Positions 1,632-42,707 of a DNA stretch of 55,785 nucleotides are shown here, piece after piece. A model generated the notes under the pieces. It did not search any database, was not told the origin of the DNA, and saw nothing but the letters and a program-made list of their open reading frames with translations. Source of the DNA: a bacterium (GTDB taxonomy: Bacteria > Patescibacteriota > Andersenbacteria > UBA10190 > CAIZMI01); assembly GCA_030647555.1 (NCBI GenBank), contig JAUSJG010000030.1, positions 1 through 55,785 on the forward strand. The letters run 5' to 3'. Position numbers and translations under genes: made by a program. Within the stretch, counting starts at the first letter, position 1, and each line of letters starts with the position of its first letter.

Positions 1632-2192
1632 TCAGAAGTCCTGCAGGCATTCCGTCACCTTAGTATAGCTGTTATCGTGACGCGTGATATCGCGGCAATC
1701 TTCGCACCGACGATTTGTGTCGTCGGGACAATAACCGGTGGCTTCGTATTCCGTGTCTTTCTTGGCGCCCGTGGAGCAGTGACAAGAACAATCCTTCGCC
1801 CAAAAGGGGTCGCCGGATCCCCCGCCACAGGGCTTGCCCTCTTCTTCCGTGTCCGTAATTTTTGGGGCGGGTTGCGGTATTGCGCCGACCAAACTTTTTA
1901 AACTGATATTATTCAAATTGTATCCACCGGACTTTACACCATAGTTCGCCGCTTGAGTATTTTTGTAAGCTGATTGGGTCTGCGGTGCTGGTATCCGCAC
2001 CTTGCTAACAACCTGTCCGGCAAATGTACCAATCACAGCCAATAGATTGTGAATGATGTCGGTAATTTCTTGGGTAAAATTTGTTGTGTCGTTGCGAAAA
2101 GGATTCCAGAATTCATCGGAAGGCGTGGCACCGTGCGACGCAAAAGGAAAAAAGATTATAACCAAAACTACTATTGCCAAAAGATAACGCAT
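1632..2192 (-). CDS. secreted Cys-rich protein, function unknown
   Basis: signal peptide MRYLLAIVVLVIIFFPFASHG; C-terminal Cys cluster CGGGSGDPFW..DCSCHC..CPDD..CEDC..ECL resembling 4336-5145. Confidence 0.6.
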   Translation of the reverse strand: MRYLLAIVVLVIIFFPFASHGATPSDEFWNPFRNDTTNFTQEITDIIHNLLAVIGTFAGQVVSKVRIPAPQTQSAYKNTQAANYGVKSGGYNLNNISLKSLVGAIPQPAPKITDTEEEGKPCGGGSGDPFWAKDCSCHCSTGAKKDTEYEATGYCPDDTNRRCEDCRDITRHDNSYTKVTECLQDF

Positions 2193-2400: not shown

Positions 2401-3174
2401 TCAATTTCTGGTGGCTAATTGGGCGTGTTGCCCAAGGTTCTTGGCGCAATCCTCCGTGATGCGCACGTGCCACCAAATACCATCGTCATTCCCGTAAAAC
2501 AGGTTGATGCCGACGGCTGTCCATCGACTAGTGGCCCGTGAATAACGGAAGAAGGGTCCGCCGGACAACCCCTTCATGTCTTCGAACTTCTCACCGTAAG
2601 TCCAAAGGCGTTTTCCTGGACCGTTCTTAACTTTTACACTTGCCTGATACTCGCGTCCCTGCTCTTTGGTAGGGTATCCGCAGTACCAGGTTTCGGTACC
2701 GTACGGGGAAGGGATGACATTTTCGTCCTCTTCCAAAGGACCGAAGTCGAAGAATCCGAGCCCAGGGTCTCTCTCCAATGTGCAGACGACCCAGTCACGG
2801 CTAACTCTTTCCCACACTTCTTCACCGCCGGATGCGCTGGCGTACTTAGAGCGGTAATCGGGATCAAATGCTGTGGCAATGACCCGGATTTTCCCGTGGG
2901 GCATTACGAGACGTCGCCCCGAACTGTCCATTGTGGCTCCCGGAGCGAAATGAACGGTCGGGTTCATACTGGTTAACCCCTCGGCCGGCTTGTACAAGCA
3001 ATGGGCGGCCGTGATTATCGTTCGGCCACTGCCACAAAGAAAGCCGGTCGACGACGGCTTTCCGTTGTAAAACACGATGCCGGTCAGCTCATACGGAGCC
3101 GCCTGTTGTGCCACCGTGGTCGAGTTGACGAAACCAAACAAAACGACCAAAACCAACGCGATTTTCCCAAACAT
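2401..3174 (-). CDS. secreted trypsin-fold (S1 family) serine peptidase
   Basis: signal peptide; catalytic motifs TAAHC (His) and GLSGGP (Ser); SD AGGAGAG 5 nt upstream of ATG. Confidence 0.8.
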   Translation of the reverse strand: MFGKIALVLVVLFGFVNSTTVAQQAAPYELTGIVFYNGKPSSTGFLCGSGRTIITAAHCLYKPAEGLTSMNPTVHFAPGATMDSSGRRLVMPHGKIRVIATAFDPDYRSKYASASGGEEVWERVSRDWVVCTLERDPGLGFFDFGPLEEDENVIPSPYGTETWYCGYPTKEQGREYQASVKVKNGPGKRLWTYGEKFEDMKGLSGGPFFRYSRATSRWTAVGINLFYGNDDGIWWHVRITEDCAKNLGQHAQLATRN

Positions 3175-3287: not shown

Positions 3288-3313
3288 CAAAAAACACGGG
3301 TACGGCCCGTGTT
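3288..3313 (-). terminator. intrinsic terminator candidate
   Basis: AACACGGGTACGGCCCGTGTT with A-run on the plus side, just downstream of the stop of 3335-4207. Confidence 0.55.
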
Positions 3314-3334
3314 TAGTACCCCTTTTGTGCCCAA

Positions 3335-4207
3335 TTAGACCGAAATTGGCTTACGCTGTGAAGTAGTGGAAATACGCCTTGAAACACCAATTTTGTCGCT
3401 TTTTTCTGACAATCCGGTGGTTCGTTGACCAATTGTCTCTTGATACAACACAACTAAGAAGGCTACTCCGAGAAGCATAAGAATGGCGGGAACCAGCCAA
3501 TACGCAAGCGGTAATGGTTGGACAATATATGAGGCAACAACGACGAAAATGGTCCATCCAACCAGGCGTAAGGCAATCGGCTTAAAATTTGGACGAATTA
3601 GTGTGACGCTATGTGTAAGAGCAGTTAGTCCTGACTTATTGTCGATTGAGGCAATGAGTTGAGCAAAAGAAAGCCAAACACCAATTACGAAAACCGGTAT
3701 TAAAAAGATAATTGCAGTGATCAGAACAAGAAGTTCGGCGACTGCCAAGGGCATAAATTGCGCAAGCATTTGTGTACCCAAAACGCCAGACCAATAGTTT
3801 AGAATTAAGACCGGAACAAGGGAGACGAAGACAAAAACCGCCAAAATAATTTCGGTGAACAAGAAGGCGGGAAAACGTTGAGTACCAATTTGAAGTGCCT
3901 TGCGAGCGCCAATTGCTTTAGTGGTGGAAAAAATGGCATAAAGGCCGACTTTTACAATTTCACAGAGAATTAGGAAAGTAACGGAGGCAATAAGCGCGAC
4001 AACAAAGAAAACCAATGTCACCCCTCGCAATGAAGGAGTTAAATTATATTGGTCGTAATTGGCGAGGTCGATTAGGTAGGGTAACGTAAAAGCAAAAGGG
4101 ACAAGCGGGAGAAGTGCTAATTTAATCGCCGTAACTTTGTGTAACCGTAATAAACGGAATGCACTCGATACTTGTTCTGTAAACGTGGAGTATTTAGCTG
4201 TTGTCAT
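3335..4207 (-). CDS. polytopic membrane protein, function unknown
   Basis: 290-aa ORF with about 6-7 long hydrophobic segments; no recognisable motif. Confidence 0.6.
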   Translation of the reverse strand: MTTAKYSTFTEQVSSAFRLLRLHKVTAIKLALLPLVPFAFTLPYLIDLANYDQYNLTPSLRGVTLVFFVVALIASVTFLILCEIVKVGLYAIFSTTKAIGARKALQIGTQRFPAFLFTEIILAVFVFVSLVPVLILNYWSGVLGTQMLAQFMPLAVAELLVLITAIIFLIPVFVIGVWLSFAQLIASIDNKSGLTALTHSVTLIRPNFKPIALRLVGWTIFVVVASYIVQPLPLAYWLVPAILMLLGVAFLVVLYQETIGQRTTGLSEKSDKIGVSRRISTTSQRKPISV

Positions 4208-4335: not shown

Positions 4336-5145
4336 TTAAAATCCAAAAAGCGTTGGATCATTGGGCGACCCGCCCGGTCCGGAAGCGGCATAGCTTTCTA
4401 CACTCTGGCGGAGACACTCTTGATAACCGTCATTGGAGGGATCGGAAACGGGGTAGCCGGAAAAATCAGCGTCCGTGGTATCTTTGCCGACATAGTAATC
4501 ATGTTTACGAATGTGGGCGTCTTGACCGAAACAAACTTCGCAAGCAACTTTTTGCGTTGATGGACCTCCGCCGATAACACTCCATAAATCGTAGCCAACG
4601 TAGTCCGGGATTGGACAATCGATCTGTTCGCCACATCGACAATAACAATCAAATTGGTTATGCCACGTCTGATATTGTTGAGCGTATTCGATGTTTCCCG
4701 GGCGCCAATAAGCAACCCAATACGCGTCTCCGGGCTTTTTACCGCAAACCTCGCCGAGTTGTGCTTGGTCGGTTACGTTTTTCCCGCCGATTTTTTTAAT
4801 CCCTTCGAAAAATTGTTGGATCGCGGTTTTTTGACCGGTAATGGAGTTGGTGCTACCGGATTTAATTCCCAGCCACTTTGGATTGCTGAATTTAAAAAGA
4901 CTGCCTAATCCACCGGAGATTTCGCTGTACCACGAATACGTGGCCGGTAGCAGGCCAAGTGCGGGGTCTACATCCTGTTTGTACCCCGCGTTTTCTCGAC
5001 CGATTCCTTCCCGAATTGACGGGTTTGATAAATCGCGTTCCACGTTAATTGGGCCGGTGGGCGGTGGATTTGCTGTTAAACCGGGGCGCGCAAAAACTAT
5101 CGTACCAATAATGATGAGGAAAAGTGCAAAAAGATTCTTATGCAT
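4336..5145 (-). CDS. secreted Cys-rich protein, last gene of the paralog operon
   Basis: signal peptide MHKNLFALFLIIIGTIVFA; CGKKPGDAYW..DCYCRC..DC..CEVC..ECL pattern similar to 1632-2192; starts 14 nt after the upstream stop. Confidence 0.7.
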   Translation of the reverse strand: MHKNLFALFLIIIGTIVFARPGLTANPPPTGPINVERDLSNPSIREGIGRENAGYKQDVDPALGLLPATYSWYSEISGGLGSLFKFSNPKWLGIKSGSTNSITGQKTAIQQFFEGIKKIGGKNVTDQAQLGEVCGKKPGDAYWVAYWRPGNIEYAQQYQTWHNQFDCYCRCGEQIDCPIPDYVGYDLWSVIGGGPSTQKVACEVCFGQDAHIRKHDYYVGKDTTDADFSGYPVSDPSNDGYQECLRQSVESYAASGPGGSPNDPTLFGF

Positions 5146-5159
5146 TGTTTGTGACGTTC

Positions 5160-6887
5160 TTAATTTACCACAGTTGTGTTGGTCTGGCTTGAAAAGAAAT
5201 TTGTAATCAGGGGAGCAATTATTTTAACAACACTTTCGATGACATTTTGTGGCATACCGCTTTGAAAAAGTTGTTGGATAATTTTTACTAAAACCGTGAC
5301 ATCGGGAGAGGAAGTGGGGTCTTCGGTTTTTTTGACGCAGGCGCCATTATAGGCGATTTGAACACGTTTTTGTGTTTGGGCGACGCAGGCGTTGGGTTGG
5401 GTTTGGCTATTGATATCACATACCGGCGCATAAGTATTCGGGCACGTGGCTACTGCCGGACTCGGTGTTGGGTTGGGTGTAGGGCTGGGGGAAGGATTAT
5501 TTTGATTCCCCTGCTGGTTACCGCCCTGCCCGTTGTTACCACCACCGTTGTTTCCTCCGCCATTATTACCATCGTTGTTCGCGCCTTGGTTGTTTGGTTT
5601 ACCGCGATTTGGGTCAGGTGATTTAAATTGACAATCCGGTGTAATAATTATCGGCTTATTATCCAGGTCCATAACAATGGACCTTTTTAGATAAATAAAA
5701 GGTTGGACTTTTTTTCCGTTTACCGTGTACGCGTGTCGTCCCGCGACACCACTGGCCAAAGATTCCTGGGCCTGTGCTTCCGTGATCATGCCGTCTATTT
5801 TGCCTGTGTCGTTGAGCCAAGTTATTTTTTCCTTTTCTTCGGGTTTCATTTTTTGGTTTTCAACCATGAGGTCATAGCTTGAACCAGCATCCGCGGTCGC
5901 TTTCTGCGTTTTTCCGTAGGTGGGATCTTTTATTGCGTCTGTCGTATCAACCTTACGCAAAAAATGCATTCGCGCGTCGCGTAATTTTTTGTTAATGTCG
6001 GATTCTTCGATTTTGTGGTTATCATCTGCTTTATTTTGTTCTCCACGGGGGTAAACCCCTGTGTTGCCAAGCATCCCTGGGTTTTGATAGCCGGTGGATT
6101 GGCCCGGTGTTACTACGCCACAATAACCGCGATTCTTTTTTATCCATTCATCTTTGGCTTTTTCATCGCGAAAAAACATAGGTGTATCATGGTTCAAAAT
6201 CAATTCGGCTTTATTATTATATTTTCCATTTGCTTTCAAGTAATCTATAAGTTCTCCGACAGTGATTACACCATCTCCATCCTTGTCCGCGCCACCGTTA
6301 CTTACGGCATTTGTGATGCGGTTTCCCATATCCGGGGCATAGCCAAGTTGATAGGCGGCAGAAGAGCTTAAGACGGCGCCGTTGTAAAGCCCGCCACCCA
6401 TAATTGACTCAACATTGTATAAGCAAAAAACGGTTCCTGACCCACACGAATCCAGAATTGTCGTGCCAACCAATTGGTTTTGTTCCAAAACTTGGGACGC
6501 CATCCATACTTGGTCGGCTTTGGAAAAAATTGAATCAGTACCGAGGCCATTTGTAACACCATGGCCGGCAAAAACAAGAGTGGCCGCGGCGGCTTCCGCG
6601 TATGGGGCAACGGCAGCATTAATCATTCGAAGGCCTTCTTCTCTATCTCTTACGTTGGAAACATCAACCCTCACAAACTGCACACCTGGAAAGTTTGCCA
6701 TGTAGCCATATTGTTGTTTATCAAGACCGGCAATTAAGCCGTCATTTGTGTGATTAACCAAGACAACAAGACTGGTGATGGGACCCACCGCGTATGTTGT
6801 GGGAGTAAACGATAACGAAATTAATAAAGCAAAGACGGCAAATATCGCGATGCTTTTAATCAGATTGTTTTTAATAATGATTTTCAT
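5160..6887 (-). CDS. secreted caspase-fold (clan CD-like) peptidase domain + EF-hand-like loop + GGGNN linker + degenerate Kazal-like knot + family C-terminal tail
   Basis: signal peptide; TLVFAGHG...(about 40 aa)...ILDSCGSG His/Cys dyad spacing; DKDGDGVITVGELIDYL; GNNGGGNNGGGNNG; C-x7-C-x10-C-x15-C; ATGA overlap with the upstream gene. Confidence 0.6.
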   Translation of the reverse strand: MKIIIKNNLIKSIAIFAVFALLISLSFTPTTYAVGPITSLVVLVNHTNDGLIAGLDKQQYGYMANFPGVQFVRVDVSNVRDREEGLRMINAAVAPYAEAAAATLVFAGHGVTNGLGTDSIFSKADQVWMASQVLEQNQLVGTTILDSCGSGTVFCLYNVESIMGGGLYNGAVLSSSAAYQLGYAPDMGNRITNAVSNGGADKDGDGVITVGELIDYLKANGKYNNKAELILNHDTPMFFRDEKAKDEWIKKNRGYCGVVTPGQSTGYQNPGMLGNTGVYPRGEQNKADDNHKIEESDINKKLRDARMHFLRKVDTTDAIKDPTYGKTQKATADAGSSYDLMVENQKMKPEEKEKITWLNDTGKIDGMITEAQAQESLASGVAGRHAYTVNGKKVQPFIYLKRSIVMDLDNKPIIITPDCQFKSPDPNRGKPNNQGANNDGNNGGGNNGGGNNGQGGNQQGNQNNPSPSPTPNPTPSPAVATCPNTYAPVCDINSQTQPNACVAQTQKRVQIAYNGACVKKTEDPTSSPDVTVLVKIIQQLFQSGMPQNVIESVVKIIAPLITNFFSSQTNTTVVN

Positions 6888-8725
6888 TTAACCACGCTTT
6901 CCGTGATGGAAGAACCGCCCGTGAATAAGCTGGTCGCACTCTTGGAAATGATACTAACCAAGTCTTGTATAAGTTGTGTAGGAATGCCACTTGAGCTTAA
7001 TTGCGCTACTAATTCTTGAAGCGCGTCGCCGGTGGTTTTGTTGGAAACCATTAGTTTTTCCGCGTCGGTGCAAACGCCAAGATGTTTGACAGAAGTTTGG
7101 TAACGGTTTGCCATACAACTGTTGGCATATGTTTTATAGTCAGCGCCACAAACTTTTTGGGTGTCTTGTTGGCAAGCGAAATTTGGGTCGTTGTAGGGGT
7201 TTGAAGTTTGCTGGGGCTGTTGGTTTTGTTGACCACCTTGGCCGAGACCTTTCAGGGCCTGCATCAGTTTGTTCACCACATCACCGAGGCCACCATCTTG
7301 TCCCCCGCCGTTATTACCGCCACCGTTGTTACCTCCGCCATTGTTGCCACCACCGCCGAGGTTGGGACTACCCGGAGGGGTGTTGGGTTGGCCTGGAGGT
7401 GGAATGGTTTGGGGCGGTGGTATGGGGGCTCCTGGGTTGTTGTTGCCTGGAGAATTTTGGCCATTATTAGGCAAAACAGGATTAGTTTGGTTGGGTTGCG
7501 CTCCACTTCCAGGAAAACTTGAATTACCACCCGGCATACATGTCGTACCAACTTGTTTCTTTTTTGCGTCTTCTTTGGCTTTTGTTTGGTTTTCTAGCGC
7601 ATCAAATTTGCAAGATTTGCCATCTTTAACATCAACAACTTCCACAAACTTTCCATCTTTATCACATTCGTAGTGTCCAATCGTATAAATACCAGGTTGA
7701 ACCATCGGTCCGCCACTCGAAACAGAGTAAGGACCATTGTTCATGAGCATTTCACTGGCTCTTCGCCAATAATCTTTGGGAATTTCTGTTTTTCCTCCTG
7801 TGGTCCAGAGCGCGGTCTGACCTGGCTTGACCCTTTGCTGAAAAAAATCAACGTTAGTTTCGTTTGGATTTGGTAGACGTTGGCCTTTATGGGCTATGGT
7901 TTCATTGTTAGACACTTGGCTGTAGTGGCCGGAATTTTTTAGGCGTAACATATTATTTATTACATTTTCATATTTTTTAGCTTCTTTTCCTAGGATATCT
8001 CTGGGATCATTAATATTTCCTTCGTTTCTTGGTGCGACGAGGTTGTCACGATACATGGGGTGGTCATCATCTGCATATTCACCAAGTTTGGGGTGAACGC
8101 ATTGTTGGGTTAGCAATGACGGTGACGTGGGGAGGGATAATAAATTTGCCTCTAGGCTTTTTTTGTAATCTGCAATAAGTGGTCTTAATTTTTCCAGAAT
8201 TTTTGCTGAATCCTTTTGATCATTAAGTGATAATCCTAGTAGGTCTGACCACGGCGAACTAGGAGCTGATTCTGCTGTTGTGCCTAGCCTTTCGTTAGCA
8301 AGATCTTCTCCCGGCTTTCCAGTTCCCAAGGATTCTTTCCCACCCGGTAAATTCTTCGTATTTTCCCCAAAATAATACCATTCATTACCTGTCGATAGTT
8401 CTTTGTTTTCTACTAATTTTAGTCGTCCTGCCTTTGCCATTTCTTCTAGTAGACTTTGGCCTAGGCGGTCGGGATCAGTTAAGACGCCGGAGCCATAAAA
8501 TTCACGTCCGACAGCCGAAAGAAACTTGCGTGACTCATCTTTTTGAATGTTGCTTTGAATCCACGCAGGAGGGGATATCCACAATCCCGGGACTTTTGTC
8601 GTACACCCACCAAGAAGGGTGCAGGAATCACCATTTGCCGCCAAAGAAGCTTTGCCAAACAATGCAACAACTGCTAATAATACAAAAAGAGCGATTCTTT
8701 TTGGGGTAATTTTTGTACCCGACAT
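6884..8725 (-). CDS. large secreted paralog with Kazal-like domain and family C-terminal tail
   Basis: ATG at 8725, 4 nt after the upstream stop (ORF track extends to a TTG at 8740); signal peptide; GGGNNGGGNNGGGNN linker; VNKLMQALKGLGQG; CQQDTQKVCGADYKTYANSC...GVC; tail LQELVAQLSSSGIPTQLIQDLVSII. Confidence 0.75.
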   Translation of the reverse strand: MSGTKITPKRIALFVLLAVVALFGKASLAANGDSCTLLGGCTTKVPGLWISPPAWIQSNIQKDESRKFLSAVGREFYGSGVLTDPDRLGQSLLEEMAKAGRLKLVENKELSTGNEWYYFGENTKNLPGGKESLGTGKPGEDLANERLGTTAESAPSSPWSDLLGLSLNDQKDSAKILEKLRPLIADYKKSLEANLLSLPTSPSLLTQQCVHPKLGEYADDDHPMYRDNLVAPRNEGNINDPRDILGKEAKKYENVINNMLRLKNSGHYSQVSNNETIAHKGQRLPNPNETNVDFFQQRVKPGQTALWTTGGKTEIPKDYWRRASEMLMNNGPYSVSSGGPMVQPGIYTIGHYECDKDGKFVEVVDVKDGKSCKFDALENQTKAKEDAKKKQVGTTCMPGGNSSFPGSGAQPNQTNPVLPNNGQNSPGNNNPGAPIPPPQTIPPPGQPNTPPGSPNLGGGGNNGGGNNGGGNNGGGQDGGLGDVVNKLMQALKGLGQGGQQNQQPQQTSNPYNDPNFACQQDTQKVCGADYKTYANSCMANRYQTSVKHLGVCTDAEKLMVSNKTTGDALQELVAQLSSSGIPTQLIQDLVSIISKSATSLFTGGSSITESVVK

Positions 8726-8729
8726 ATTT

Positions 8730-9476
8730 TTAGTTTCCAACTGTTACTGTTGTTCCGCAGATCTCCTCTGTCGCGCTAGTTGAGGCGTTTTGTACGCAAA
8801 AGTTATAGGAGCCGGCATTTGGGAAGCGGAAAATTATTGTTCCCTCTTTATTGACTGTCTGCTCGTTAGTGGTGGTTTTTACGTTGTTTTTATAAACATG
8901 CATTACTCGGTTACTACCGGTGCCGTTGATTAAATTGACACAATTGCCTTTTGCAATACTAACAGTGGTCGGTTTAATCACTAATGCTTCCGCATCGCCC
9001 GCCAAGAATAAGGTTTGACCGCACAATGTTGGCCCCGCTGATGGTGTTGGCGTGGCGTAGGGATTCCACGTTGTTCCGTTGCCACCATAAGCATATGGAT
9101 CGTTGTAATTGCCGTTTTGACTACCGCTACCATTTTGACTGCCACTTCCCTGCGGGCCAACGGTACCGTATTGCGGAAGTTTTTCGTCAACGTTGCCTTG
9201 TTGGGGCGTACTACCGCCACCCTGAAACAGTTGCATAAGCATTGGTAGTAGGGAGAGCATAATTTTCATCATTCCACCGCCACCACCGCTAAGCAGTGAT
9301 CCTAGACCGCCGGCCGCAGCGCTTGATCCTCCGCCACATCCACCGGAACCACATCCGCCCGATTGTGCCAGGGCGGATTCTATGGGAAACGCGACCCCTG
9401 ATTGAATAAATAAAAGTACAAAGATGATTGCAACGACAGATTTTTTTCGGAGTGAGTTGAGTGTGAGTGTTTTCAT
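8730..9476 (-). CDS. small secreted Gly/Met-rich protein with 4-Cys beta-rich C-terminal domain (paralog of 11066-11650)
   Basis: ATG at 9476 (ORF track TTG at 9497); signal peptide; MLMQLFQGGG; GNVDEKLPQYGTV; LCGQTLFLAGD...NFCVQ...CGTTVTVGN aligns along its length with 11066-11650. Confidence 0.7.
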   Translation of the reverse strand: MKTLTLNSLRKKSVVAIIFVLLFIQSGVAFPIESALAQSGGCGSGGCGGGSSAAAGGLGSLLSGGGGGMMKIMLSLLPMLMQLFQGGGSTPQQGNVDEKLPQYGTVGPQGSGSQNGSGSQNGNYNDPYAYGGNGTTWNPYATPTPSAGPTLCGQTLFLAGDAEALVIKPTTVSIAKGNCVNLINGTGSNRVMHVYKNNVKTTTNEQTVNKEGTIIFRFPNAGSYNFCVQNASTSATEEICGTTVTVGN

Positions 9477-9486
9477 GTATTTGAAA

Positions 9487-11064
9487 TTATTTAACAACTG
9501 TTTCCGTCAAAACCGACGTACCGCTTAGGAAACTGCCGATTAATTTTGCGACAACCTGCGCGATGTCTGTGATTAGTTGTGTGGGTAGTCCGCTGGTGCT
9601 TAATTGTTGCAGAAGAGTGGTGGCTACTTTGCTGTTGCTGTCTAAAGTTGCGGTGGTTTGGTCTGCTTCAGTACATTCACCGATGTGTTTAATGGCGATT
9701 TGGTTTTTGTATTCAGCCACACAGCGATTCGCGTATGTAATCGCATCGGCTCCACACACTGCTTGTGCATCCGGGGGGCAAGCGAAAGCGCTTGGAGTCG
9801 GGGATGGGGATGTTGTTGGGTTTTGGTTGCCTTTACCTAGTCCTTGCAGGGCTTTCATAAGTTCCGGCAAAATTTTGTCGAGGCCACCACCACCTCCTCC
9901 GCCTGGTCCTCCGCCACCGCCACCCTCACCACCTTGGAGGTTTGGCCAGCCACCCGGGTTGTTGGCGCCCTGATTTCTAAGGTCTTCCGCGGTTGCTCTC
10001 AAGAACTTGCAATCGTCGGTAACTTTTGTGTCGTTGGTTGACTTCTTTGCCGCGGTGGGGCTTGGATTATCAGCACTGTCAGTAAATCTCAACGGATACG
10101 CGCCCGGTGTCATGCGCATTTCAGAACCGTTGTCTGGTTTGTACCCATTACGGGTGTCTGGATTAGCCTTGCTTTCTCCTGGGAATGTAAGCGCATATTT
10201 CGTGTGCTCACTTTTTGATTTTGGAATATATGGTGGCTTAAATCCTTCCGGCAGTTTTTCCTGTAGTTGTTTTTCGTTCGATTTGTTGCCAATTGTTACT
10301 CCACCGCCTCCAAGTTTGTCGTGGTGGAGTTTTCCTTTCTCGGTTAAGGAATTATAGTCGTCTTCTGATGTAACTCCCAGAGACCGTTTTGGGGGATTGT
10401 CTTTAAGGTACCACCAATTCAGCTGGCTCATTCTTTTTACCGGCACATCAATCCCATCAATATCTTTTGCACAAGAATCATCGACTCGACAAAATGGATT
10501 TTCAGCAAGAGTTGGACCTGCTGGGTTGTATTGCGCAAATTCCGGAAATTCATCCGCATCTTTGACTAAAGCTACGCCACTTTGGCCCCACATGTCGCCG
10601 TTAACTTTAGATTGGCCAGGTGGGACAAGACTACATTTGACACCTTTATCTAATTTCTTTTGTAGGTTGTCCCTTAGGGCCTTCATAACTTCGCTGGTCG
10701 GTGGTTTTAATGTTTCTGGGATACCGTTTTTCCCAAGATCTTTTTTGTCGACTTCTTTAACATCGAGACTGGCACCACGGAGTTGCTCTGCTATTTGTTT
10801 AGGAGAAAGTCCGTCTGCCAAGATACCTTTACCTAAAGCTTCGAGAGTGGCGTCACACGATGGACACCATGATTTTCCAGTTGTAACATCGAAAGTTCCT
10901 ACGTAGAGAACGGAGTTAACTGTATTGGCGCCACCGTTTGGAGGGCAACCTTGGGGGCCACAACCTGGCGCGGCATTAACCGAATTTTTTAAGGCATAGC
11001 CGGTAATACACAAAACGGCAATTACCAAACACGATTGCAATAAAGTTTTAAGTGATATTTTCAT
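9487..11064 (-). CDS. large secreted paralog with Kazal-like domain and family C-terminal tail
   Basis: ATG 1 nt after the upstream TAA, with AGGAGG inside the upstream gene end; signal peptide; KVTDDCKFLRATAEDL; poly-Gly; LMKALQGLGKG; CPPDAQAVCGADAITYANRC...GEC; tail LLQQLSTSGLPTQLITDIAQVV. Confidence 0.75.
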   Translation of the reverse strand: MKISLKTLLQSCLVIAVLCITGYALKNSVNAAPGCGPQGCPPNGGANTVNSVLYVGTFDVTTGKSWCPSCDATLEALGKGILADGLSPKQIAEQLRGASLDVKEVDKKDLGKNGIPETLKPPTSEVMKALRDNLQKKLDKGVKCSLVPPGQSKVNGDMWGQSGVALVKDADEFPEFAQYNPAGPTLAENPFCRVDDSCAKDIDGIDVPVKRMSQLNWWYLKDNPPKRSLGVTSEDDYNSLTEKGKLHHDKLGGGGVTIGNKSNEKQLQEKLPEGFKPPYIPKSKSEHTKYALTFPGESKANPDTRNGYKPDNGSEMRMTPGAYPLRFTDSADNPSPTAAKKSTNDTKVTDDCKFLRATAEDLRNQGANNPGGWPNLQGGEGGGGGGPGGGGGGGLDKILPELMKALQGLGKGNQNPTTSPSPTPSAFACPPDAQAVCGADAITYANRCVAEYKNQIAIKHIGECTEADQTTATLDSNSKVATTLLQQLSTSGLPTQLITDIAQVVAKLIGSFLSGTSVLTETVVK

Positions 11065-11065
11065 A

Positions 11066-11650
11066 TTAATTGCCTCCTACGGTTACGGTTGTGCCACAGA
11101 AGTCTGCGACGGAACCGGTGCCTTTGACACAGAATTTAAATATCCCACTATTTACGAAGCGGAAGATAAACATATCTTCTTTTTTGACAACCTGTTCGGT
11201 GGCTGTTTTGGCGTCGTCTTTGTAAATACGCATTGTTTTATCGCTACTCGAGCCATTGATTAAGTTTAGACAGTCGTTTTGGGCGACTTTTAATGAATCC
11301 GGTTTTAATGTCAAATCTTTTCCGGTGCCTGCTAAGAAAAATGTTTGATCGCAGAGAGTTGTTTTAGGAGTGGTGGGTGAATTGGTTGGTTGCACCGTGG
11401 CATAGCGTGGCAGTTGTTCCTCCACGTTACCTTTTTGCGGTGTATTACTACTCTGAAAAAGTTGCATCATCATTTGCATCAGGAGGGCGATGATCATAAT
11501 CATGCCACTGTCTTGCGCTTGGGCGTTTGGCGTGATGATAAATGCTACCGGCGAAATAAATTGCAGGCCGATGATGATTAGAACAAATAAAACACCCAAC
11601 TTAAAGGGAGTCCCAAACTTAGTATGAAGGCTACGAAATATTTTCTGCAT
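11066..11650 (-). CDS. small secreted Met-rich protein with 4-Cys beta-rich C-terminal domain, first gene of the operon
   Basis: start taken at MQKIFRSL (ORF track extends to 11725); TM/signal segment; MMMQLFQSS; GNVEEQLPRYATV; LCDQTFFLAG...KFCVK...FCGTTVTVGGN. Confidence 0.65.
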   Translation of the reverse strand: MQKIFRSLHTKFGTPFKLGVLFVLIIIGLQFISPVAFIITPNAQAQDSGMIMIIALLMQMMMQLFQSSNTPQKGNVEEQLPRYATVQPTNSPTTPKTTLCDQTFFLAGTGKDLTLKPDSLKVAQNDCLNLINGSSSDKTMRIYKDDAKTATEQVVKKEDMFIFRFVNSGIFKFCVKGTGSVADFCGTTVTVGGN

Positions 11651-11761
11651 TTTTGTATTTAGTGTTTTAGTTATTTTTATCCACCTAACATTAATTAGTA
11701 TAGCATGAATTGCAGTGTTGCACAAACGATATTTTTGAACTGCTTATAGGTTTGAAAGTTC

Positions 11762-11796
11762 GTCTTTGCGAGCCCTTTCAAGGGCGAAGCAATCTC
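11762..11796 (+). repeat. 35-nt GTCTTTGCGAG-hairpin-GAAGCAATCT element
   Basis: GTCTTTGCGAGCCCTTTCAAGGGCGAAGCAATCTC. Confidence 0.6.
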
Positions 11797-11818
11797 AGTG
11801 CTTTTTTGTTTATCGCGG

Positions 11819-11853
11819 GAGATTGCTTCGGCGTTGAAACGCCTCGCAAAGAC
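11819..11853 (-). repeat. 35-nt GTCTTTGCGAG-hairpin-GAAGCAATCT element (inverted copy)
   Basis: reverse complement reads GTCTTTGCGAGGCGTTTCAACGCCGAAGCAATCTC. Confidence 0.6.
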
Positions 11854-11988
11854 TGCGTTTTTTCGAATTACTTTCATGCGAGTGAGGAGTTACACGTTTT
11901 TTCGTTTGTTGTGAAAGAATCCCCGTCGGATCTTTTTAATGGGCAGTATTATTTTTTGTAATTAACGTCTATAATTAAGGAAAGAAAA

Positions 11989-13197
11989 ATGAAAACACTA
12001 AAACTTTTGCTTTTTTTTGTATTTCTGTTGCCACTGATCGCGCAAGCGGTTGGTGGTTGCTCCAATGGGAAGTGTTTAAATCCGAATCCGGTCGTTAGTC
12101 CAACATCGAAATCTTCTGATAAACCGGCTGATGCGCCTTCCTTGCCGAAACTGCCGGCCATGAACAGCGAAGATAAAAAGCCAACCCCTAATACCGAGGC
12201 GTGCGGATTTGTGAGCAAGGGAATGCAAGATGGCGGTGATGACGACAAAATGTATGGGCAACCGAATGTGGCGTCTTTCATGGACGAAGAGCCGTTATCA
12301 TATTACAGACCTATCCCGAATCCTGTGCCGATTGATTTTTATGATATTTCCGCTAGGCCGGATAATATTTTGTATTCTGCTTCGGATGTACATGGGCTGC
12401 CGACCTACTACTATGAAAGCGCCACTAACTTTTTTTATCGTACTCAAGGTGTGGATATGTGGAATAAAGGTCTGGGTGGAATAAGAACAAAATCAACATG
12501 GGACAAAAGCCAGCTCTATCCGGATATTCAGACGCGGTTGAATGAGGCAAGCGAGTATTACAAAGGATTATCCAATGAAGAAATTGTGCGGAAGGCGGTC
12601 GGCAAAAGGTCGGTAACAATAGTTTTGCCAACCATTGCGCAAAACAAAGACACTTCCAAGGTTTCATATATACCGGATAACGGTTCCAGTCAGGAAATTC
12701 GGCCAATTGTGGTGAATGAAGGCAGTGTCATTAGCAGTGTCAAAACTTTGCAAGACGGTCAAACGCCGGATACGAAAGTTAATGATGATTGTTCATTGAC
12801 GGAATTATCAAAAGACGAGGCAAAAAAGTTGCAAAACCCTCAGCCACCAAACGGATCAGGTTCACCACAAGGACAAGGTGGTGGCGGAGGGGGCGGTGGA
12901 GAAGATGGATTGAGTAAAATAATGTCGGCTTTACAGCAGGCTTTGAGTGCGGCCAAAGGCGGACAAAATAACAATGCCAACACGCAACCGCAGACGCAAC
13001 CGCAGGCAAGCGCGCAACCAACTCCCGCCTTTGTTCCTATGGCAAATAAGGTAGACGTTATCGGTCAGGCAATGAACGCCGGTATTCCTACGTCATTTCT
13101 GGAAAGTATTTTTCAGTCTATTACAAAACTATTGGAAAACATTTCACTGTACGGTCTGTCTAGCGATAAGACGGCGCGGACAGTAATTGTTCAGTGA
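11989..13197 (+). CDS. secreted paralog of the large-protein family (no Kazal knot)
   Basis: signal peptide MKTLKLLLFFVFLLPLIAQA; KVNDDCSLTELSKDEAKKL; GGGGGGGG; LSKIMSALQQAL; tail VIGQAMNAGIPTSFLESIFQSITKLL. Confidence 0.7.
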   Translation: MKTLKLLLFFVFLLPLIAQAVGGCSNGKCLNPNPVVSPTSKSSDKPADAPSLPKLPAMNSEDKKPTPNTEACGFVSKGMQDGGDDDKMYGQPNVASFMDEEPLSYYRPIPNPVPIDFYDISARPDNILYSASDVHGLPTYYYESATNFFYRTQGVDMWNKGLGGIRTKSTWDKSQLYPDIQTRLNEASEYYKGLSNEEIVRKAVGKRSVTIVLPTIAQNKDTSKVSYIPDNGSSQEIRPIVVNEGSVISSVKTLQDGQTPDTKVNDDCSLTELSKDEAKKLQNPQPPNGSGSPQGQGGGGGGGGEDGLSKIMSALQQALSAAKGGQNNNANTQPQTQPQASAQPTPAFVPMANKVDVIGQAMNAGIPTSFLESIFQSITKLLENISLYGLSSDKTARTVIVQ

Positions 13198-13497
13198 GGA
13201 AATAAGTCCAAGACATTGTGACTTGTTAGCCGATTCTCGTCGATCTACAGTAGTCTCCGGCGTCTGGTTTGATTTTTTGAGTAACTCCGTAACGTTGTGG
13301 AGTTTTTTGTTGACCAGCGTACCGTTCACGGAACGGAGCAAGGTTGCTCCGTTCCGTGAACGGGCGAAGCGGTTCGAATAATTCACTCTTGCCCATCCTC
13401 ACGGATGGTCAATGGTCCCCCCTCGCCGAGGCTATGGGGGGGGCGCAAAGACGCGAAACGCGTTAATTATTTCATACCCACTATTGCGTGTGGACTG

Positions 13498-14613
13498 TTA
13501 AACGCCACCAAATAGTTGCCACGTTTGAATCCCAATGTTACCAGCTAATGATTCAAACATATTGAATGGGAATGGGGTTAAATTACTCATCATATTCGTT
13601 ACCGGCTTAAGAAGCGAAGATGATGATGGCGGTACGGCCGGTGGTGGTACTGCGGGTGGCTCAAATTTCTGCGCGGCATCGGCGGCACTTTTTTGCAGAT
13701 TATCGAAATCTTCTTGTGTTGCCTCTACGAACGAACAATCAGCTGTCACTTTAGCTTTTTTACCATCAGCAGTGTCGTAAACTTGTCCTTTTACGTAGGC
13801 TCCAACGCCAGCTTTTTTTGTGGGATACATTTTTGATCCACCTTTTGTTTTATATCCTCCCTTGGGAGAGCTCATGTGTTCTTTTGCTTCATTTTCTCCA
13901 GGCAAAGGTGTTTCGCCTTTCCATCCCGCCCAGTCGGCATTAGATCTTCCCTCTTTTAATGAAAGTTCATTTTGAATTATGGGGTCAGCGCTTGCTGTTT
14001 TGGCGATCTTGAGGGCATCATCATCACGATAACCAAGATGTTTCTCGCGCAATTCCTTATTTGTTGGGGATTCCATCCCCTTTAGCGCTTCGTTTCCAAA
14101 AGCATCCTTGCCACCCGGATCTTTAGCGACTCCTTCTTCGCCCCACATATTGCCATATTCCGGCGTTTGGCCGGGTGTTACCAAGGCACAACCGTCATTT
14201 GTCGGTTTTTTGCCAAAAAGACTGCTTAGTAAATCGCCACCCTTTTTTGATGCTGCTTCCGCGGCATCTTGTATTTTTTTTCTCGCGATAAAATCGACTT
14301 GTTGATCGCTACCTAAGTATTTTGTAGCTGCTTTTGTATAAGCCTCTCCCGTATCAGGATCGAAAGTAGTTTTAGTTAACCTTGATAATTTTCCAGAGCT
14401 GGTCTCAAATAATTTTACTGTTTCACCTGCGGTGTTACTTGAATTAAACGTATTAAGTGTTATTGGTTTTAAGTTTTGAGAAATAAATGACGTCTGTCCC
14501 GCAGCCACGGGGTTTGATTGAGCCTTTATTATACTAAAATTTAAACCTAGCGCACCCATCGCGCATAGTATCAACGTCCCTAAAATTATTGAATGTTTTT
14601 TTAATTGTTTCAT
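13498..14613 (-). CDS. secreted paralog of the large-protein family (short form)
   Basis: signal peptide; CALVTPGQTPEYGNMWGEEG matches CSLVPPGQSKVNGDMWGQSG of 9487-11064; KVTADCSFVEATQEDF; Pro-rich linker. Confidence 0.7.
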   Translation of the reverse strand: MKQLKKHSIILGTLILCAMGALGLNFSIIKAQSNPVAAGQTSFISQNLKPITLNTFNSSNTAGETVKLFETSSGKLSRLTKTTFDPDTGEAYTKAATKYLGSDQQVDFIARKKIQDAAEAASKKGGDLLSSLFGKKPTNDGCALVTPGQTPEYGNMWGEEGVAKDPGGKDAFGNEALKGMESPTNKELREKHLGYRDDDALKIAKTASADPIIQNELSLKEGRSNADWAGWKGETPLPGENEAKEHMSSPKGGYKTKGGSKMYPTKKAGVGAYVKGQVYDTADGKKAKVTADCSFVEATQEDFDNLQKSAADAAQKFEPPAVPPPAVPPSSSSLLKPVTNMMSNLTPFPFNMFESLAGNIGIQTWQLFGGV

Positions 14614-15367: not shown

Positions 15368-16561
15368 TTATTGCACAAAGGAAGCGAGGTTGTCGCGAAT
15401 GGTTTTTAGTTTTGTGATATTTGTGTTTAATCCGGCCTGCAGTTCACGTGCCGCCAAGTACGCTTTTACCGGATCTGTTTTTCCATAAGTCTGAATTACT
15501 CCCAGGCGGTCGTTTAGAAACCTTGTTATTTGGACTAATAAAGTTTGGTGCGGTACGGCAGTTGCGGGAGTGGGAATGGCTAATAATTTTCCTTCGTAGG
15601 TTGTTAGGTTGCCTCGGATAGAAGCCAGTTGTTGTGTATTGCCATAGAACGCATTCATTAACGCGGTTGTTAGGGTGTTTGAGTCGAGAAGTTCGGTTGG
15701 TCGCATTGCATCTATTTTCGTTAAGTAATCATTTATATCGGCGGGGGTGTTGGTTTGAATAATATTTAATTCCGATACTTTTGCTTCCGGTAGGGTGGTG
15801 TTTAATTGCGCATTGGCCAGTGTTTGTTGGACTTGTTCCGGGGTTACTTTAACTTGCCCGATTTGGTTTGTGGGCGTGTTGCCAAGCATCAGGCCGGCCA
15901 AACCCTCGGTGTAGTTGGAGGAATTTGTGTTGGGGCGCATGGCGGCATCGGACAGTTGGGCTTTTTTTTCGGGTAACGCGTCGCTGCCTTTTCCGTCTCC
16001 CGTTTTGGCGGGATCATAGCCATTTGTAACTTCTACGCCATCTTTATAATTATCCCCGTCCGTATCCGGATTAAACGCGTCTGTCTCCCATTTACATTCT
16101 TGATCATCGGTTAAACCGTCATCATCACTATCCAGGCGGGCATTGCCAGGCGTTAGAGGATTATAGCCGTTCTTCACTTCGTCGCCGTCTTTATAACTGT
16201 CTCCGTCCGTATCAGGATTGTTGTTATCAGTTTTGTAAATTGTTTCCACGGTATCCGGTAAACCATCATTGTCGGTGTCGGTTTGGCCAACCCATTGTGT
16301 GGGGCAAGCACTTTTTGAATTGACTGTCAGGGTGCTTCCGTTTGAAATTGCGTTTGGGTCGGGGGTGCCGTTAAAAAGCGGATCGGAGCCGTTATTGTTT
16401 CCGTCACCAAAAAGCGGTGCTTCGGATGGTGTTGGTGAACTCGAGTCGGTTGGTGGTTGGTTTGTAGTTGTGTCCTTATTTCTTACTAATTGGAAAATAC
16501 CGACACTGGCAACGATGAGCAGTGCTACCCCGAGAACAATATAGAGAATTCTGTTTTGCAT
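15368..16561 (-). CDS. membrane-anchored thrombospondin type-3-repeat protein
   Basis: N-terminal TM; DTDNDGLPD, DPDTDGDSYKDGDE, DSDDDGLTDDQE, NPDTDGDNYKDG repeats; C-terminal helical domain. Confidence 0.75.
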   Translation of the reverse strand: MQNRILYIVLGVALLIVASVGIFQLVRNKDTTTNQPPTDSSSPTPSEAPLFGDGNNNGSDPLFNGTPDPNAISNGSTLTVNSKSACPTQWVGQTDTDNDGLPDTVETIYKTDNNNPDTDGDSYKDGDEVKNGYNPLTPGNARLDSDDDGLTDDQECKWETDAFNPDTDGDNYKDGVEVTNGYDPAKTGDGKGSDALPEKKAQLSDAAMRPNTNSSNYTEGLAGLMLGNTPTNQIGQVKVTPEQVQQTLANAQLNTTLPEAKVSELNIIQTNTPADINDYLTKIDAMRPTELLDSNTLTTALMNAFYGNTQQLASIRGNLTTYEGKLLAIPTPATAVPHQTLLVQITRFLNDRLGVIQTYGKTDPVKAYLAARELQAGLNTNITKLKTIRDNLASFVQ

Positions 16562-16653: not shown

Positions 16654-17733
16654 CTATTTCGCTAACGCGTCTAATTTTTGTCTTTCAATTTTAAGCGCGT
16701 TTAAGTTATCGGAAAGAATTTTTTGTAAGCCGGTCGCGGCTTGTAATTGTTTTTGCGGGTCTTTTCCTGCCACAGAGGCGATAATTCCGAGTTGTTGGTT
16801 TACGGAACGCGCTAAAGAAACCAATAAAATTTGATGATTAATCGCGTTCTCGGGAGTGGAAATTTTGAGAATATCTTTTTCGTATGTGTTTAATTGTGCC
16901 AAGACTGGTTGAAGTTTTGAGCCATCTCCGTTAAAAGCGGCTACTAATGCGTCGGTAAAAGGCGTACCACCGATTAAAACAGCCGGACTGCTCTGATCAA
17001 CTGTAGCTAAATATGTTTTTACGTTAGCCGGTGTGCTGTTTTTGCTAATATTTAGTTCGGTACGGGCAACTTTTACGAAATTAACCGGAGGAAAAGTTGG
17101 CGCGACGGTGGCTCTTGGCGTGGCGGTTGGAAGTGTGGATGTGGTTGGGGTGGGTGTGCCAAAAACTATACCTGTTGGTTCCGGCGATGGTGAGAAACCC
17201 GGTATTGGGGTGGGTGATGTACCTCCAATGCGGGCGTTCCCTGGAATTAGCGGATCATAACCGTTTATTACTTCCGCGCCGTCATTAAAGCTATCTCCGT
17301 CCGAGTCTGCCTTAAACGCGTCTGTCTCCCATTTACATTCTTGATCATCGGTTAAACCGTCATTATCACTATCCAGTCTCGCGCTACCTGGCTTTAGTGG
17401 GTCATAACCATTCTTCACTTCTTCGCCATCTTTATAACTATCTCCGTCTGTATCAGGGTTATTGGTATCGGTTTTGTAGATTGCTTCCACGGTATCAGGT
17501 AGACCATCATTGTCTGTGTCGGTTTGACCAATCCATTGCGTGGGACAAATAGCGGCAACAAGCGGTCCGTCCGGTGTTGGAGTGGCGGTGAATATCGGGC
17601 TTTCGGTTGGGGTCGCCGTTGGTTCCGGTGAAGGACCAACGCCTGTTTTTTTGCCAAATAAAAAGTATCCGACAATGCCAAATACCAGTAGGGCAAATAC
17701 TATGGCGATAATGATGAGGTTGCGTTTCGACAT
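16654..17733 (-). CDS. membrane-anchored thrombospondin type-3-repeat protein (tandem paralog)
   Basis: same repeat series as 15368-16561; 64/65 nt identity between 17312-17376 and 16071-16135. Confidence 0.75.
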   Translation of the reverse strand: MSKRNLIIIAIVFALLVFGIVGYFLFGKKTGVGPSPEPTATPTESPIFTATPTPDGPLVAAICPTQWIGQTDTDNDGLPDTVEAIYKTDTNNPDTDGDSYKDGEEVKNGYDPLKPGSARLDSDNDGLTDDQECKWETDAFKADSDGDSFNDGAEVINGYDPLIPGNARIGGTSPTPIPGFSPSPEPTGIVFGTPTPTTSTLPTATPRATVAPTFPPVNFVKVARTELNISKNSTPANVKTYLATVDQSSPAVLIGGTPFTDALVAAFNGDGSKLQPVLAQLNTYEKDILKISTPENAINHQILLVSLARSVNQQLGIIASVAGKDPQKQLQAATGLQKILSDNLNALKIERQKLDALAK

Positions 17734-42676: not shown

Positions 42677-42707
42677 AAAAATCTGCTGTCTTTGCACGAA
42701 AGAGAGC

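Follow-up and report, generated by a model that had tools for sequence, protein, structure and literature searches.

A variable cassette of exported, cysteine-rich proteins that adjoins a type IV secretion system in relatives of an Andersenbacteria genome

What role might be served by a chromosomal array of exported, cysteine-rich proteins, encoded in part as pairs of small and large genes? The question is raised by positions 4336–14613 of a contig of 55,785 nucleotides (nt; JAUSJG010000030.1, assembly GCA_030647555.1) from a member of the Andersenbacteria (Patescibacteriota), the whole of which was analysed and is called the window. The region holds eight genes, g1 to g8, that we term the cassette. 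It may be one half of a conserved chromosomal locus of Patescibacteria of the Parcubacteria/Andersenbacteria type, namely the half that is variable and encodes exported proteins, the other half being an MPF-FATA-like type IV secretion system (T4SS); the cassette would then be a host-facing accessory module, and we give this reading slightly less than an even chance of being correct. The protein families are new, and variable exported arrays next to the T4SS of Patescibacteria are known in principle (PMC7427843, PMC12102498). A preliminary description had presented the cassette as a candidate cell-surface or host-interaction system not described before. The novelty is borne out, in that Pfam, NCBIfam, PHROGs and PADLOC yielded no match beyond a Kazal module and an EF-hand loop. 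The cassette is not self-contained, since in seven related lineages it runs on into a T4SS cluster. Identities as phage, defence-system or curated-family proteins were dropped, since ten proteins scanned against NCBIfam, PHROGs and PADLOC yielded nothing meaningful.

Organization, synteny and variability of the cassette

Six of the genes lie on the minus strand between 11650 and 4336, as two small and large pairs followed by two single genes. In the direction of transcription these are g6 (small protein 1; 11066–11650, 194 aa from an internal ATG), g5 (large protein 1; 9487–11064, 525 aa), g4 (small protein 2; 8730–9476, 248 aa), g3 (large protein 2; 6884–8725, 613 aa), g2 (5160–6887, 575 aa) and g1 (4336–5145, 269 aa), the last encoding an exported 8-Cys protein. 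Of the remaining two, g7 (11989–13197, 402 aa) is on the plus strand and g8 (13498–14613, 371 aa) on the minus strand. Seven co-directional genes in the range 11650 to 4336 and nine family proteins had been counted previously. The common direction stands; the list of open reading frames (ORFs) gives six genes in this range and eight family proteins, the seventh co-directional gene (3335–4207) falling outside it. The gene coordinates were reproduced in the ORF list, and the closely spaced junctions (1, 10 and 4 nt, an ATGA overlap and 14 nt) agree with the ORF coordinates and internal ATGs. g6 and g7 diverge from an intergenic region of 338 nt (11651–11988) that is presumed to carry both promoters. 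The 61 nt proximal to g7 (11940–12000, extending into the start of the gene) are 95% identical in the close relative L001. A scan for promoters and terminators gave counts that barely exceed shuffled expectation, and established no promoter in 11651–11988.

All eight products have a basic start followed by an N-terminal hydrophobic segment as judged by a hydropathy heuristic, in agreement with the signal peptides proposed for them. Paralogy had been claimed for the entire set. It holds for seven of the proteins, related well above chance in an all-versus-all BLASTP comparison, and fails for g1, which is similar to none of them. g4 and g6 are 41% identical over 182 aa (E = 5e-43), and g3 and g5 are 40% identical across their final 135 aa (E = 4e-26). 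The weaker pairs are g2 with g5 (2e-9), g2 with g8 (1e-7), g5 with g7 (7.5e-7) and g5 with g8 (1e-4). The arrangement of a small with a large gene was sought in other genomes and is conserved, a small gene being located directly upstream of a large-family gene in nine out of nine cases across the loci.

To compare gene order, the ORFs of 30 related loci were mapped onto a reference set. The conserved order starts with KsgA, followed by one or two TSP3-repeat proteins, g7/g8-type genes, a number of small and large pairs that varies between loci, a g2-type gene, g1, a multi-transmembrane (multi-TM) protein, a small Cys-rich protein and a further TSP3 protein. In seven lineages (L004, L009, L010, L021, L029, L030 and L031) a T4SS cluster comes next in this order; the L004 locus lies on a contig of 1.02 Mb. 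The cluster comprises genes for an exported protein of ~190 aa, a protein of ~510 aa, a polytopic protein of ~750–800 aa and one or two proteins of ~150–200 aa, together with PrgI/VirB3, TraC/TrsD-like and VirB4 proteins. The scores were 38.2 bits for PrgI (cut-off 27), 22.4 for CagE_TrbE_VirB (cut-off 21) and, in L031, 25.1 for TrbL/VirB6 (below the cut-off of 25.9). L004, L029 and L031, which are syntenic with the window, encode VirB4, VirB3/PrgI, VirB6 and TrsD-like proteins together.

The window ends at the point where the T4SS cluster would be expected from this order. Its outermost gene (457–1467, minus strand) encodes a membrane-anchored TSP3-repeat protein (Pfam TSP3_bac, 50.5 bits), orthologues of which are 42–70% identical and form the final gene ahead of the T4SS cluster in all seven lineages. 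The two are directly adjacent or separated by up to ~750 nt; in L031, whose downstream genes are the most closely related to those of the window (~70% identity), the cluster begins straight after the TSP3 gene. The left end of the contig (1–456) has no ORF, and thus extends 456 nt past the TSP3 gene, where the gap before the T4SS lies in the relatives. In Patescibacteria the T4SS is chromosomal, MPF-FATA-like and without relaxases, and is often found near ksgA, KsgA being a frequent neighbour of virB4 (PMC12102498). In other classes variable arrays of Sec-exported VirB2-like proteins flank the T4SS (PMC12102498, PMC7427843). Two accounts of the Patescibacteria T4SS (PMC12102498, PMC12857230) do not mention the cassette.

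The variation within the cassette is localized. Compared with L001 the protein identity is 92% for g6, 90% for g4 and 85–89% for g2, and is 54% for g5 and 56% overall for g3. Taken in segments of 40 residues, identity is 25–65% (mostly 25–57%) up to about aa 360 in g5 and aa 440 in g3, and rises over the last ~160 aa to 80–100% in g5 and 92–100% in g3. At the DNA level the backbone aligns with that of L001 at 85–89% identity, with sharp gaps at the heads of the large genes. The hypervariable head of g5 (10153–11055, minus strand, approximately aa 1–300) has no nucleotide similarity to L001 save for one stretch of 84 nt that is 79% identical, and none was detected for that of g3 (7452–8656, minus strand, approximately aa 25–425). 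Protein identity within these two head segments is 25–57% for g5 and 25–50% for g3. Comparison with L002 shows that the cassette diverges faster than the neighbouring genes, on the evidence of the aligned orthologues: these are 46–61% identical within the cassette, and those of the KsgA and G5/DPBB genes alongside it are 80–89% identical. Two large paralogues of L004 (L004 3620–5599 and 6345–8213) share an identical Gly-rich linker and Kazal segment of ~100 aa beneath different heads, which suggests homogenization of the constant part by gene conversion.

Several origins of the variable heads were considered and rejected. Their GC content (0.443 in g5 and 0.428 in g3) equals the genome average and the composition profile has no island, arguing against foreign origin. 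Among the window paralogues there are no nucleotide repeats of at least 20 nt except for one chance 21-mer, and recent duplication or gene conversion between them was likewise set aside. A diversity-generating retroelement was dismissed because no reverse transcriptase was matched among the ~40 window ORFs that were scanned and the heads are wholly divergent rather than A-mutated; a template repeat was covered by the repeat check alone.

The cassette is rare. The profile of the central module (described below), run exhaustively as a hidden Markov model against 1.84 billion representatives, returned 28 proteins at E ≤ 1e-3, four of them from the window, and a word-indexed search of 5.8 billion sequences with g5 found three non-self relatives only. 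The search with g1 gave ~40 clusters; g1 is the best-conserved member of the locus and served as the marker by which related loci were located. All of the matches to named genomes are Patescibacteria, namely Candidatus Andersenbacteria/Anderseniibacteriota, the Parcubacteria group and metagenome-assembled genomes automatically labelled as Saccharibacteria. The cassette extends past the immediate clade of the window, because the same core is carried by L003 (Logan ERR3478686), which is of far higher GC content and has a large Kazal protein, a protein combining His/Cys motifs, EF-hand and Kazal, and a g1 homologue of 43% identity.

Contigs of many independent assemblies (L006, L008–L012, L016–L020, L022–L023, L030 and L033–L038) stop inside the last large gene, upstream of g1 by a few hundred bases. 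This is consistent with assembly breaks arising from paralogous or polymorphic cassette sequence.

Modular architecture of the cassette proteins

The large proteins are built to a common plan, in which a variable head leads into a Cys-bounded central module, and a flexible Gly-rich linker then connects this to a short hydrophobic helix, a Kazal module with four cysteines and a two-helix tail. The preliminary description had listed modules shared by the large proteins, and the central module is present in all five (g2, g3, g5, g7 and g8). It is bounded by two invariant cysteines and has the pattern C-x-(V/L)-x-PGQ...G-x-M(W/Y)G ... GY-x-P-x-(N/G)GS-x-M-x-PG-x-Y ... (V)TDDC-x-F. The modules of g8 (P0045, 7.7e-56) and the divergent one of g3 (P0046, 4.9e-53) both match the family profile. 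Beyond it come a linker rich in Gly or in G/N/P/Q, a hydrophobic helix of the LMKALQGLG type and a second linker, after which the Kazal module of g2, g3 and g5 precedes the tail. The latter (~45 aa) is predicted by AlphaFold2 (AF2) to form two helices with an SG(I/L/M)P turn between them.

Individual proteins elaborate this plan. g5 comprises a signal peptide, a C-x4-C loop, a head with the sequence WCPSC, the central module, a poly-Gly linker, the helix, the Kazal module and the tail of ~45 aa. g3 is constructed similarly, with a C-x5-C loop after the signal peptide, then the head, the central module and a P/G/N-rich linker that leads to the helix, Kazal module and tail. g7 and g8 both lack the Kazal module; in g7 the signal peptide is followed by a C-x4-C loop, the central module, a Gly linker, the helix and the two-helix tail, and in g8 the signal peptide and central module precede a Pro-rich stretch with a short tail. 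The g7 orthologue in L002 is 32% identical, and the counterpart in L001 has a common signal peptide and is divergent thereafter. Relatives are also modular, with differing N-terminal domains that often contain His/Cys motifs and with between zero and two Kazal modules. The exported products mostly have even numbers of cysteines. No LPXTG motif, lipobox or C-terminal TM anchor was found in g1–g8 by regular-expression and hydropathy scans, the maximum hydropathy of the tail being 1.5.

A C-x(4-5)-C mini-loop is located straight after the predicted signal-peptide cleavage site in g3, g4, g5 and g7 (for example CGPQGC at aa 35–40 of g5). A C-x3-C version of this mature N-terminal loop is found in a few relatives, and the loops occur in small and large proteins alike.

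The C-x-x-C of g5 (WCPSC, aa 66–70) is invariant in seven g5-type heads. A thioredoxin-like domain was considered for these heads and was not supported, neither the PDB nor the Pfam matches being significant. The best PDB match (E = 0.028) is to a protein that is not a thioredoxin, with thioredoxin, DsbE and Grx at E = 0.8–3, and Pfam TXD17-like_Trx scored 20.2 (cut-off 23.1) in one g5-type head only.

The Kazal-like knot noted at the outset is confirmed by Pfam in g5 (Kazal_1, PF00050, 28.9 bits against a cut-off of 21; Kazal_2, PF07648, 28.2 against 22.8) and g3 (Kazal_1, 24.9 bits), and falls exactly at the cut-off in g2 (Kazal_1, 21.0 bits, cut-off 21). The PDB sequence search agrees, the nearest solved structures being ovomucoid (1.6e-9) and the leech tryptase inhibitor LDTI (4e-5). 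The module is a reduced variant with four cysteines, equivalent to C2, C3, C4 and C6 and lacking the C1–C5 pair, as in g5 ACPPDAQAVCGADAITYANRC...GEC; the canonical form has six cysteines and three disulfides (C1–C5, C2–C4 and C3–C6). Read directly from the letters, P1 is Pro in g5, Gln in g3 and Asn in g2. The cassette modules share with classic inhibitors (ovomucoid, LDTI and oomycete EPI1/EPI10) the core C-x7-C-G-x-D-G-x-T-Y-x-N-x-C ... C, a location that is extracellular (predicted here) and a host-associated organism. Unlike those inhibitors, each is a single unit placed between a flexible linker and the helical tail of a large bacterial protein, with four cysteines and P1 residues of Pro, Gln or Asn; any inhibition is putative. 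No paper joining Kazal domains with Patescibacteria was present among the top full-text matches. A preprint on host defence (PMC13622651) was considered as a protease link to the Kazal module and set aside, since the defence that it describes is Esx-based and not relevant.

The small proteins are simpler. g6 consists of a signal peptide, a hydrophobic helix (MIMIIALLMQMMMQLFQ), a linker and a 4-Cys β-sandwich ending in CGTTVTVGGN; its paralogue g4 has in addition a C-x4-C loop and a Gly-rich stretch. The hydrophobic helix (LMQLFQG/S) lies right behind the leader and has the same motif as that of the large proteins. The motifs originally picked out in the small proteins (LMQLFQ, GN(V/A)(D/E)E and CGTTVTV) prove invariant or nearly so across the loci. 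A cupredoxin-like fold is plausible for the C-terminal domain from its sequence, and the top PDB matches, to plastocyanins at E = 0.39–1.2, are consistent with this and not significant. A copper protein was rejected, as the alignment contains no conserved His or Met ligands.

g2 contains a signal peptide, an α/β domain with His-Gly and Cys motifs, an EF-hand loop, the central module, a GGNN linker, Kazal module and tail. In the N-terminal domain of g2-type proteins the Cys and its flanking Gly are invariant within a (D/E)-S-C-G-S-G motif, and the His is present in eight of nine sequences, being replaced in L021. The EF-hand loop (DKDGDGVITVGE) is of the 12-residue D-x-[DN]-x-[DN]-G-x-[ILV]-x-x-x-E type, with the D, D and E invariant in the nine sequences. 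Searched as a profile against the PDB it finds EF-hand proteins at 2e-9; the single sequence scores 19.5 in Pfam, below the cut-off of 25.4. There is one loop and no pair.

The label 'peptidase-like' had been attached to g2 on the basis of the His-Gly and Cys motifs, and is not upheld. The AF2 model (predicted local distance difference test score, pLDDT, of 70, and weak around both motifs) is an alternating β-α-β sandwich in which His and Cys follow strands 101–107 and 140–146. This modelled placement would be compatible with a catalytic dyad, and is predicted to resemble that in the clan CD cysteine peptidases (caspase, legumain, clostripain and gingipain fold), where His-Gly and Cys also follow strands of a β-α-β sandwich. 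Unlike those enzymes, g2 has no Pfam or PDB sequence match as a peptidase, and only generic α/β folds are matched. Nine g2-type N-terminal domains compared with Pfam at E up to 10, and as a profile with the PDB, gave only EF-hand matches and none to clan CD (C11, C13, C14, C25 or CHAT). The top 50 Foldseek matches to the PDB are generic Rossmann, flavodoxin and SGNH folds at E ≥ 0.005, with caspase, legumain and gingipain structures absent from them. Foldseek against BFVD gave clostripain-like (E = 0.02) and caspase-like (0.045) viral proteins amid many unrelated matches. Assignment of g2 to clan CD thus finds no support in Pfam, the PDB profile search or Foldseek.

In g1 the residues C167, C169, C177, C202, C205 and C244 are invariant, together with E46, D126, W143, R148, N151, E153 and H215. 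Its AF2 model has a pLDDT of 60 and is confident only for residues 130–250, and Foldseek matched nothing to it in the PDB.

Possible roles of the cassette

An exported, Cys-rich, modular and fast-diverging set of proteins would fit a role at the cell surface or in interaction with a host. That the role may be host-facing and connected with the T4SS is proposed because of the synteny, the mosaic of constant and variable parts, the faster divergence, the taxonomic restriction and rarity, and the literature context. In a more specific and distinctly more doubtful version, the cassette would be the host-recognition module of the T4SS. The constant helix–Kazal–tail unit and the small subunits would dock interchangeable heads, and recombinational replacement of heads would set or shift host range. 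In the host-facing reading as a whole, the proteins would be exported by the Sec route, and the small and large subunits would then come together through their shared helix and tail motifs on the cell surface, close to the T4SS. The swap-prone heads would touch the envelope of the host cell and determine specificity, and the Kazal knots would confer resistance to proteases, or inhibit those of the host or the cell itself. g2 would contribute a Ca2+-binding domain and may be enzymatic. A conserved core, made up of g1, its paralogue at 1632–2192 and the multi-TM protein, could provide its coupling to the membrane or to the T4SS.

A number of observations weigh against this host-facing reading. 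There are no T4SS genes anywhere in the window, the contig ending first, and its linkage to the T4SS is therefore deduced from synteny. About 10 other loci have housekeeping genes behind g1 and the multi-TM gene and no T4SS within ~10 kb, so that the linkage is frequent and not universal; nor is gene neighbourhood proof of joint function. The cassette proteins have no structural or sequence similarity to a known adhesin, pilin or T4SS component that could be found. Signal peptides were called by the hydrophobicity heuristic alone, and surface location, assembly through the helix motif and binding to a host are all putative.

The closest known systems are the 'secreted array' of TM7x and the arrays of VirB2-like pilins in Southlakia epibionticum and in other classes (PMC7427843, PMC12102498, PMC12857230). 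Like the cassette, these are tandem arrays of paralogous, fast-diverging proteins with Sec signals that flank a chromosomal, non-conjugative, MPF-FATA-like T4SS, with KsgA nearby and a proposed role in the epibiotic lifestyle. In contrast to them, the cassette proteins are unrelated to VirB2, and are much larger (194–613 aa) and modular (central module, Kazal, tail and EF-hand), with small and large pairs. Their variation is limited to the large-protein heads, and the cassette is located five to six genes from the T4SS core rather than embedded within it. A functional parallel may be drawn with a Gram-positive conjugative system. PrgA, PrgB and PrgC of pCF10 are exported surface proteins encoded in an MPF-FATA T4SS locus that mediate contact with the target cell. 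By analogy the cassette would also be a set of exported surface proteins within such a locus; unlike the pCF10 adhesins, it has no sequence similarity to them and no LPXTG anchor. No adhesin has been identified for the T4SS of Patescibacteria, where adhesins of the PrgB type were sought and not found (PMC12102498).

Patescibacteria represent a large part of bacterial diversity and live mostly attached to other cells. The T4SS is essential in the sole genetically tractable case, being required for the epibiotic growth of Southlakia epibionticum (PMC12857230). A T4SS-linked cassette would provide concrete candidates for host contact and host range in epibionts that belong to the Candidate Phyla Radiation (CPR). 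It also adds new modules, namely the Cys-bounded central module, the Cys-rich core of g1 and the 1632–2192 protein, the helix–Kazal–tail unit and a bacterial 4-Cys variant of Kazal. Its importance is limited by the narrow clade, the inferred nature of each functional step and a window that is without T4SS genes. Were the T4SS link incidental, the cassette would still represent an exported family that is new, very rare and unusual in its mosaic evolution, of modest wider importance.

The alternative that survives best, though we consider it unlikely, is a stand-alone toolkit of secreted proteases and inhibitors. g2, as a possible cysteine protease, and the trypsin-like enzyme encoded nearby (see below) would digest proteins of the host or environment for an auxotroph, the Kazal modules would shield exoproteins or block host proteases, and proximity to the T4SS would be incidental. 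This is consistent with the presence of Kazal modules in g2, g3 and g5, with a trypsin-like gene within the locus and a Trypsin_2 gene beside the L003 cassette, with the retention of the His-Gly and Cys motifs of the g2-type domain across eight loci, and with the ~10 loci that lack a T4SS in the flank. However, the g2 domain is not demonstrably a peptidase, Pro, Gln and Asn at P1 are atypical for targets of the trypsin type, and the trypsin gene does not belong to the conserved set at this locus. The pairing of small and large genes and the localized replacement of heads would also be left unexplained.

It is rather improbable that the proteins are cargo of the T4SS. In that case they would be toxins or effectors exported by Sec and assembled beyond the membrane, and the T4SS would release or deliver them in the way that Ptl does pertussis toxin. 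The combination of Sec signals with T4SS linkage parallels ptx-ptl of Bordetella, where proteins with Sec signals are also encoded beside a T4SS that has no role in conjugation, and the analogy has already been made for the TM7x array (PMC7427843). The organization into small and large subunits fits an assembled toxin, and the conserved C-terminal tail could serve as a recognition element. Against this, scans with Pfam, NCBIfam and PADLOC recognized no toxin domain, and the cassette has neither detected ADP-ribosyltransferase or B-subunit folds nor sequence similarity to ptx. Bordetella is a diderm that uses a two-step route, whereas the present organism is a monoderm with no outer membrane for such a route. 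Moreover, polymorphic toxins are usually variable at the C-terminus, whereas here it is the N-terminus that varies and the C-terminus that is constant.

An appendage resembling a pilus or fibre, with a shaft polymerized from the small proteins and the large ones as adhesins at its tip, is more improbable again. Its analogues would be VirB2/VirB5 or the VirB2 arrays known in Saccharibacteria, and it would accommodate both the invariable position of the small gene immediately before a large one and the hydrophobic helix directly behind the signal peptide of the small proteins. Yet seven small proteins gave no match to VirB2/TrbC (PF04956) or T4SS_pilin (PF18895) even at E up to 10. They have a single hydrophobic helix after the leader rather than two, followed by the β-sandwich that makes up most of the protein, and were rejected as VirB2 pilins on these grounds. 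Least probable of all are generic cell-envelope or S-layer-type structural proteins with no specific host or T4SS role, since, although the products are exported, Cys-rich and linker-rich and their chromosomal locus is of average composition for the genome and has housekeeping genes around it, the extreme rarity and patchy distribution, the localized replacement of heads between close relatives and the repeated T4SS linkage all speak against it.

Flanking genes and the remainder of the window

Directly behind g1 is a gene (3335–4207, minus strand) for a multi-TM membrane protein, with several hydrophobic segments and no Pfam match, whose orthologue occupies the same position in nearly all loci. 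It is probably the last gene of the g1 transcription unit. A terminator-like hairpin with a 9-bp stem and a T-run (3292–3314, minus strand; a match to the consensus only) lies directly 3′ of it, and suggests that the unit takes in the multi-TM gene.

The next gene (2401–3174, minus strand) encodes an exported trypsin-like serine protease, scoring 20.5 bits with Pfam Trypsin where the cut-off is 20.6. It is found between the multi-TM and Cys-rich genes in this genome only, being absent at this position in L004, L009 and L029–L031, and is a lineage-specific insertion. In L003 a Trypsin_2 gene (L003 3492–4985) adjoins the cassette.

The exported 8-Cys small protein that follows (1632–2192, minus strand) is a distant paralogue of the g1 core. 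Comparison of the two alignments by hhalign gave a probability of 96.5% (E = 7.8e-10), revealing a common Cys-rich core with the motifs PCG..GDP(Y/F)W, DC-x-C-x-C, CP, CE-x-C and I-(R/T)-(K/R)-HD. The gene is syntenic in L004, L009 and L029–L031, and has a weak counterpart (27%) in L021.

At the KsgA-side border of the cassette are two paralogous TSP3-repeat proteins (15368–16561 and 16654–17733, both minus strand; Pfam TSP3_bac) that are 41% identical to each other (E = 9e-91), and whose position is kept in L002, L013, L021, L027 and L028. Together with that at 457–1467, three paralogous, membrane-anchored TSP3 (Ca-binding) proteins thus bracket the cassette, and the bracket is kept in relatives. 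These proteins may themselves be associated with the T4SS.

The window is otherwise ordinary chromosome of even composition, with genes for KsgA, UvrD, NusA, ClpP, trigger factor and RNase Y as well as tRNAs. A gene unrelated to the cassette (35118–36173) encodes a Fic/DOC domain with an N-terminal FUR-like winged-helix match, and may specify a Fic-type AMPylator or a toxin-like regulator. At 41456–43661 a DUF1861 gene and a GH130 gene (β-1,4-mannooligosaccharide phosphorylase-like) lie side by side on opposite strands. The pair is adjoined by the gene for an H+-pyrophosphatase (43758–45824), a notable metabolic content for a reduced CPR genome.

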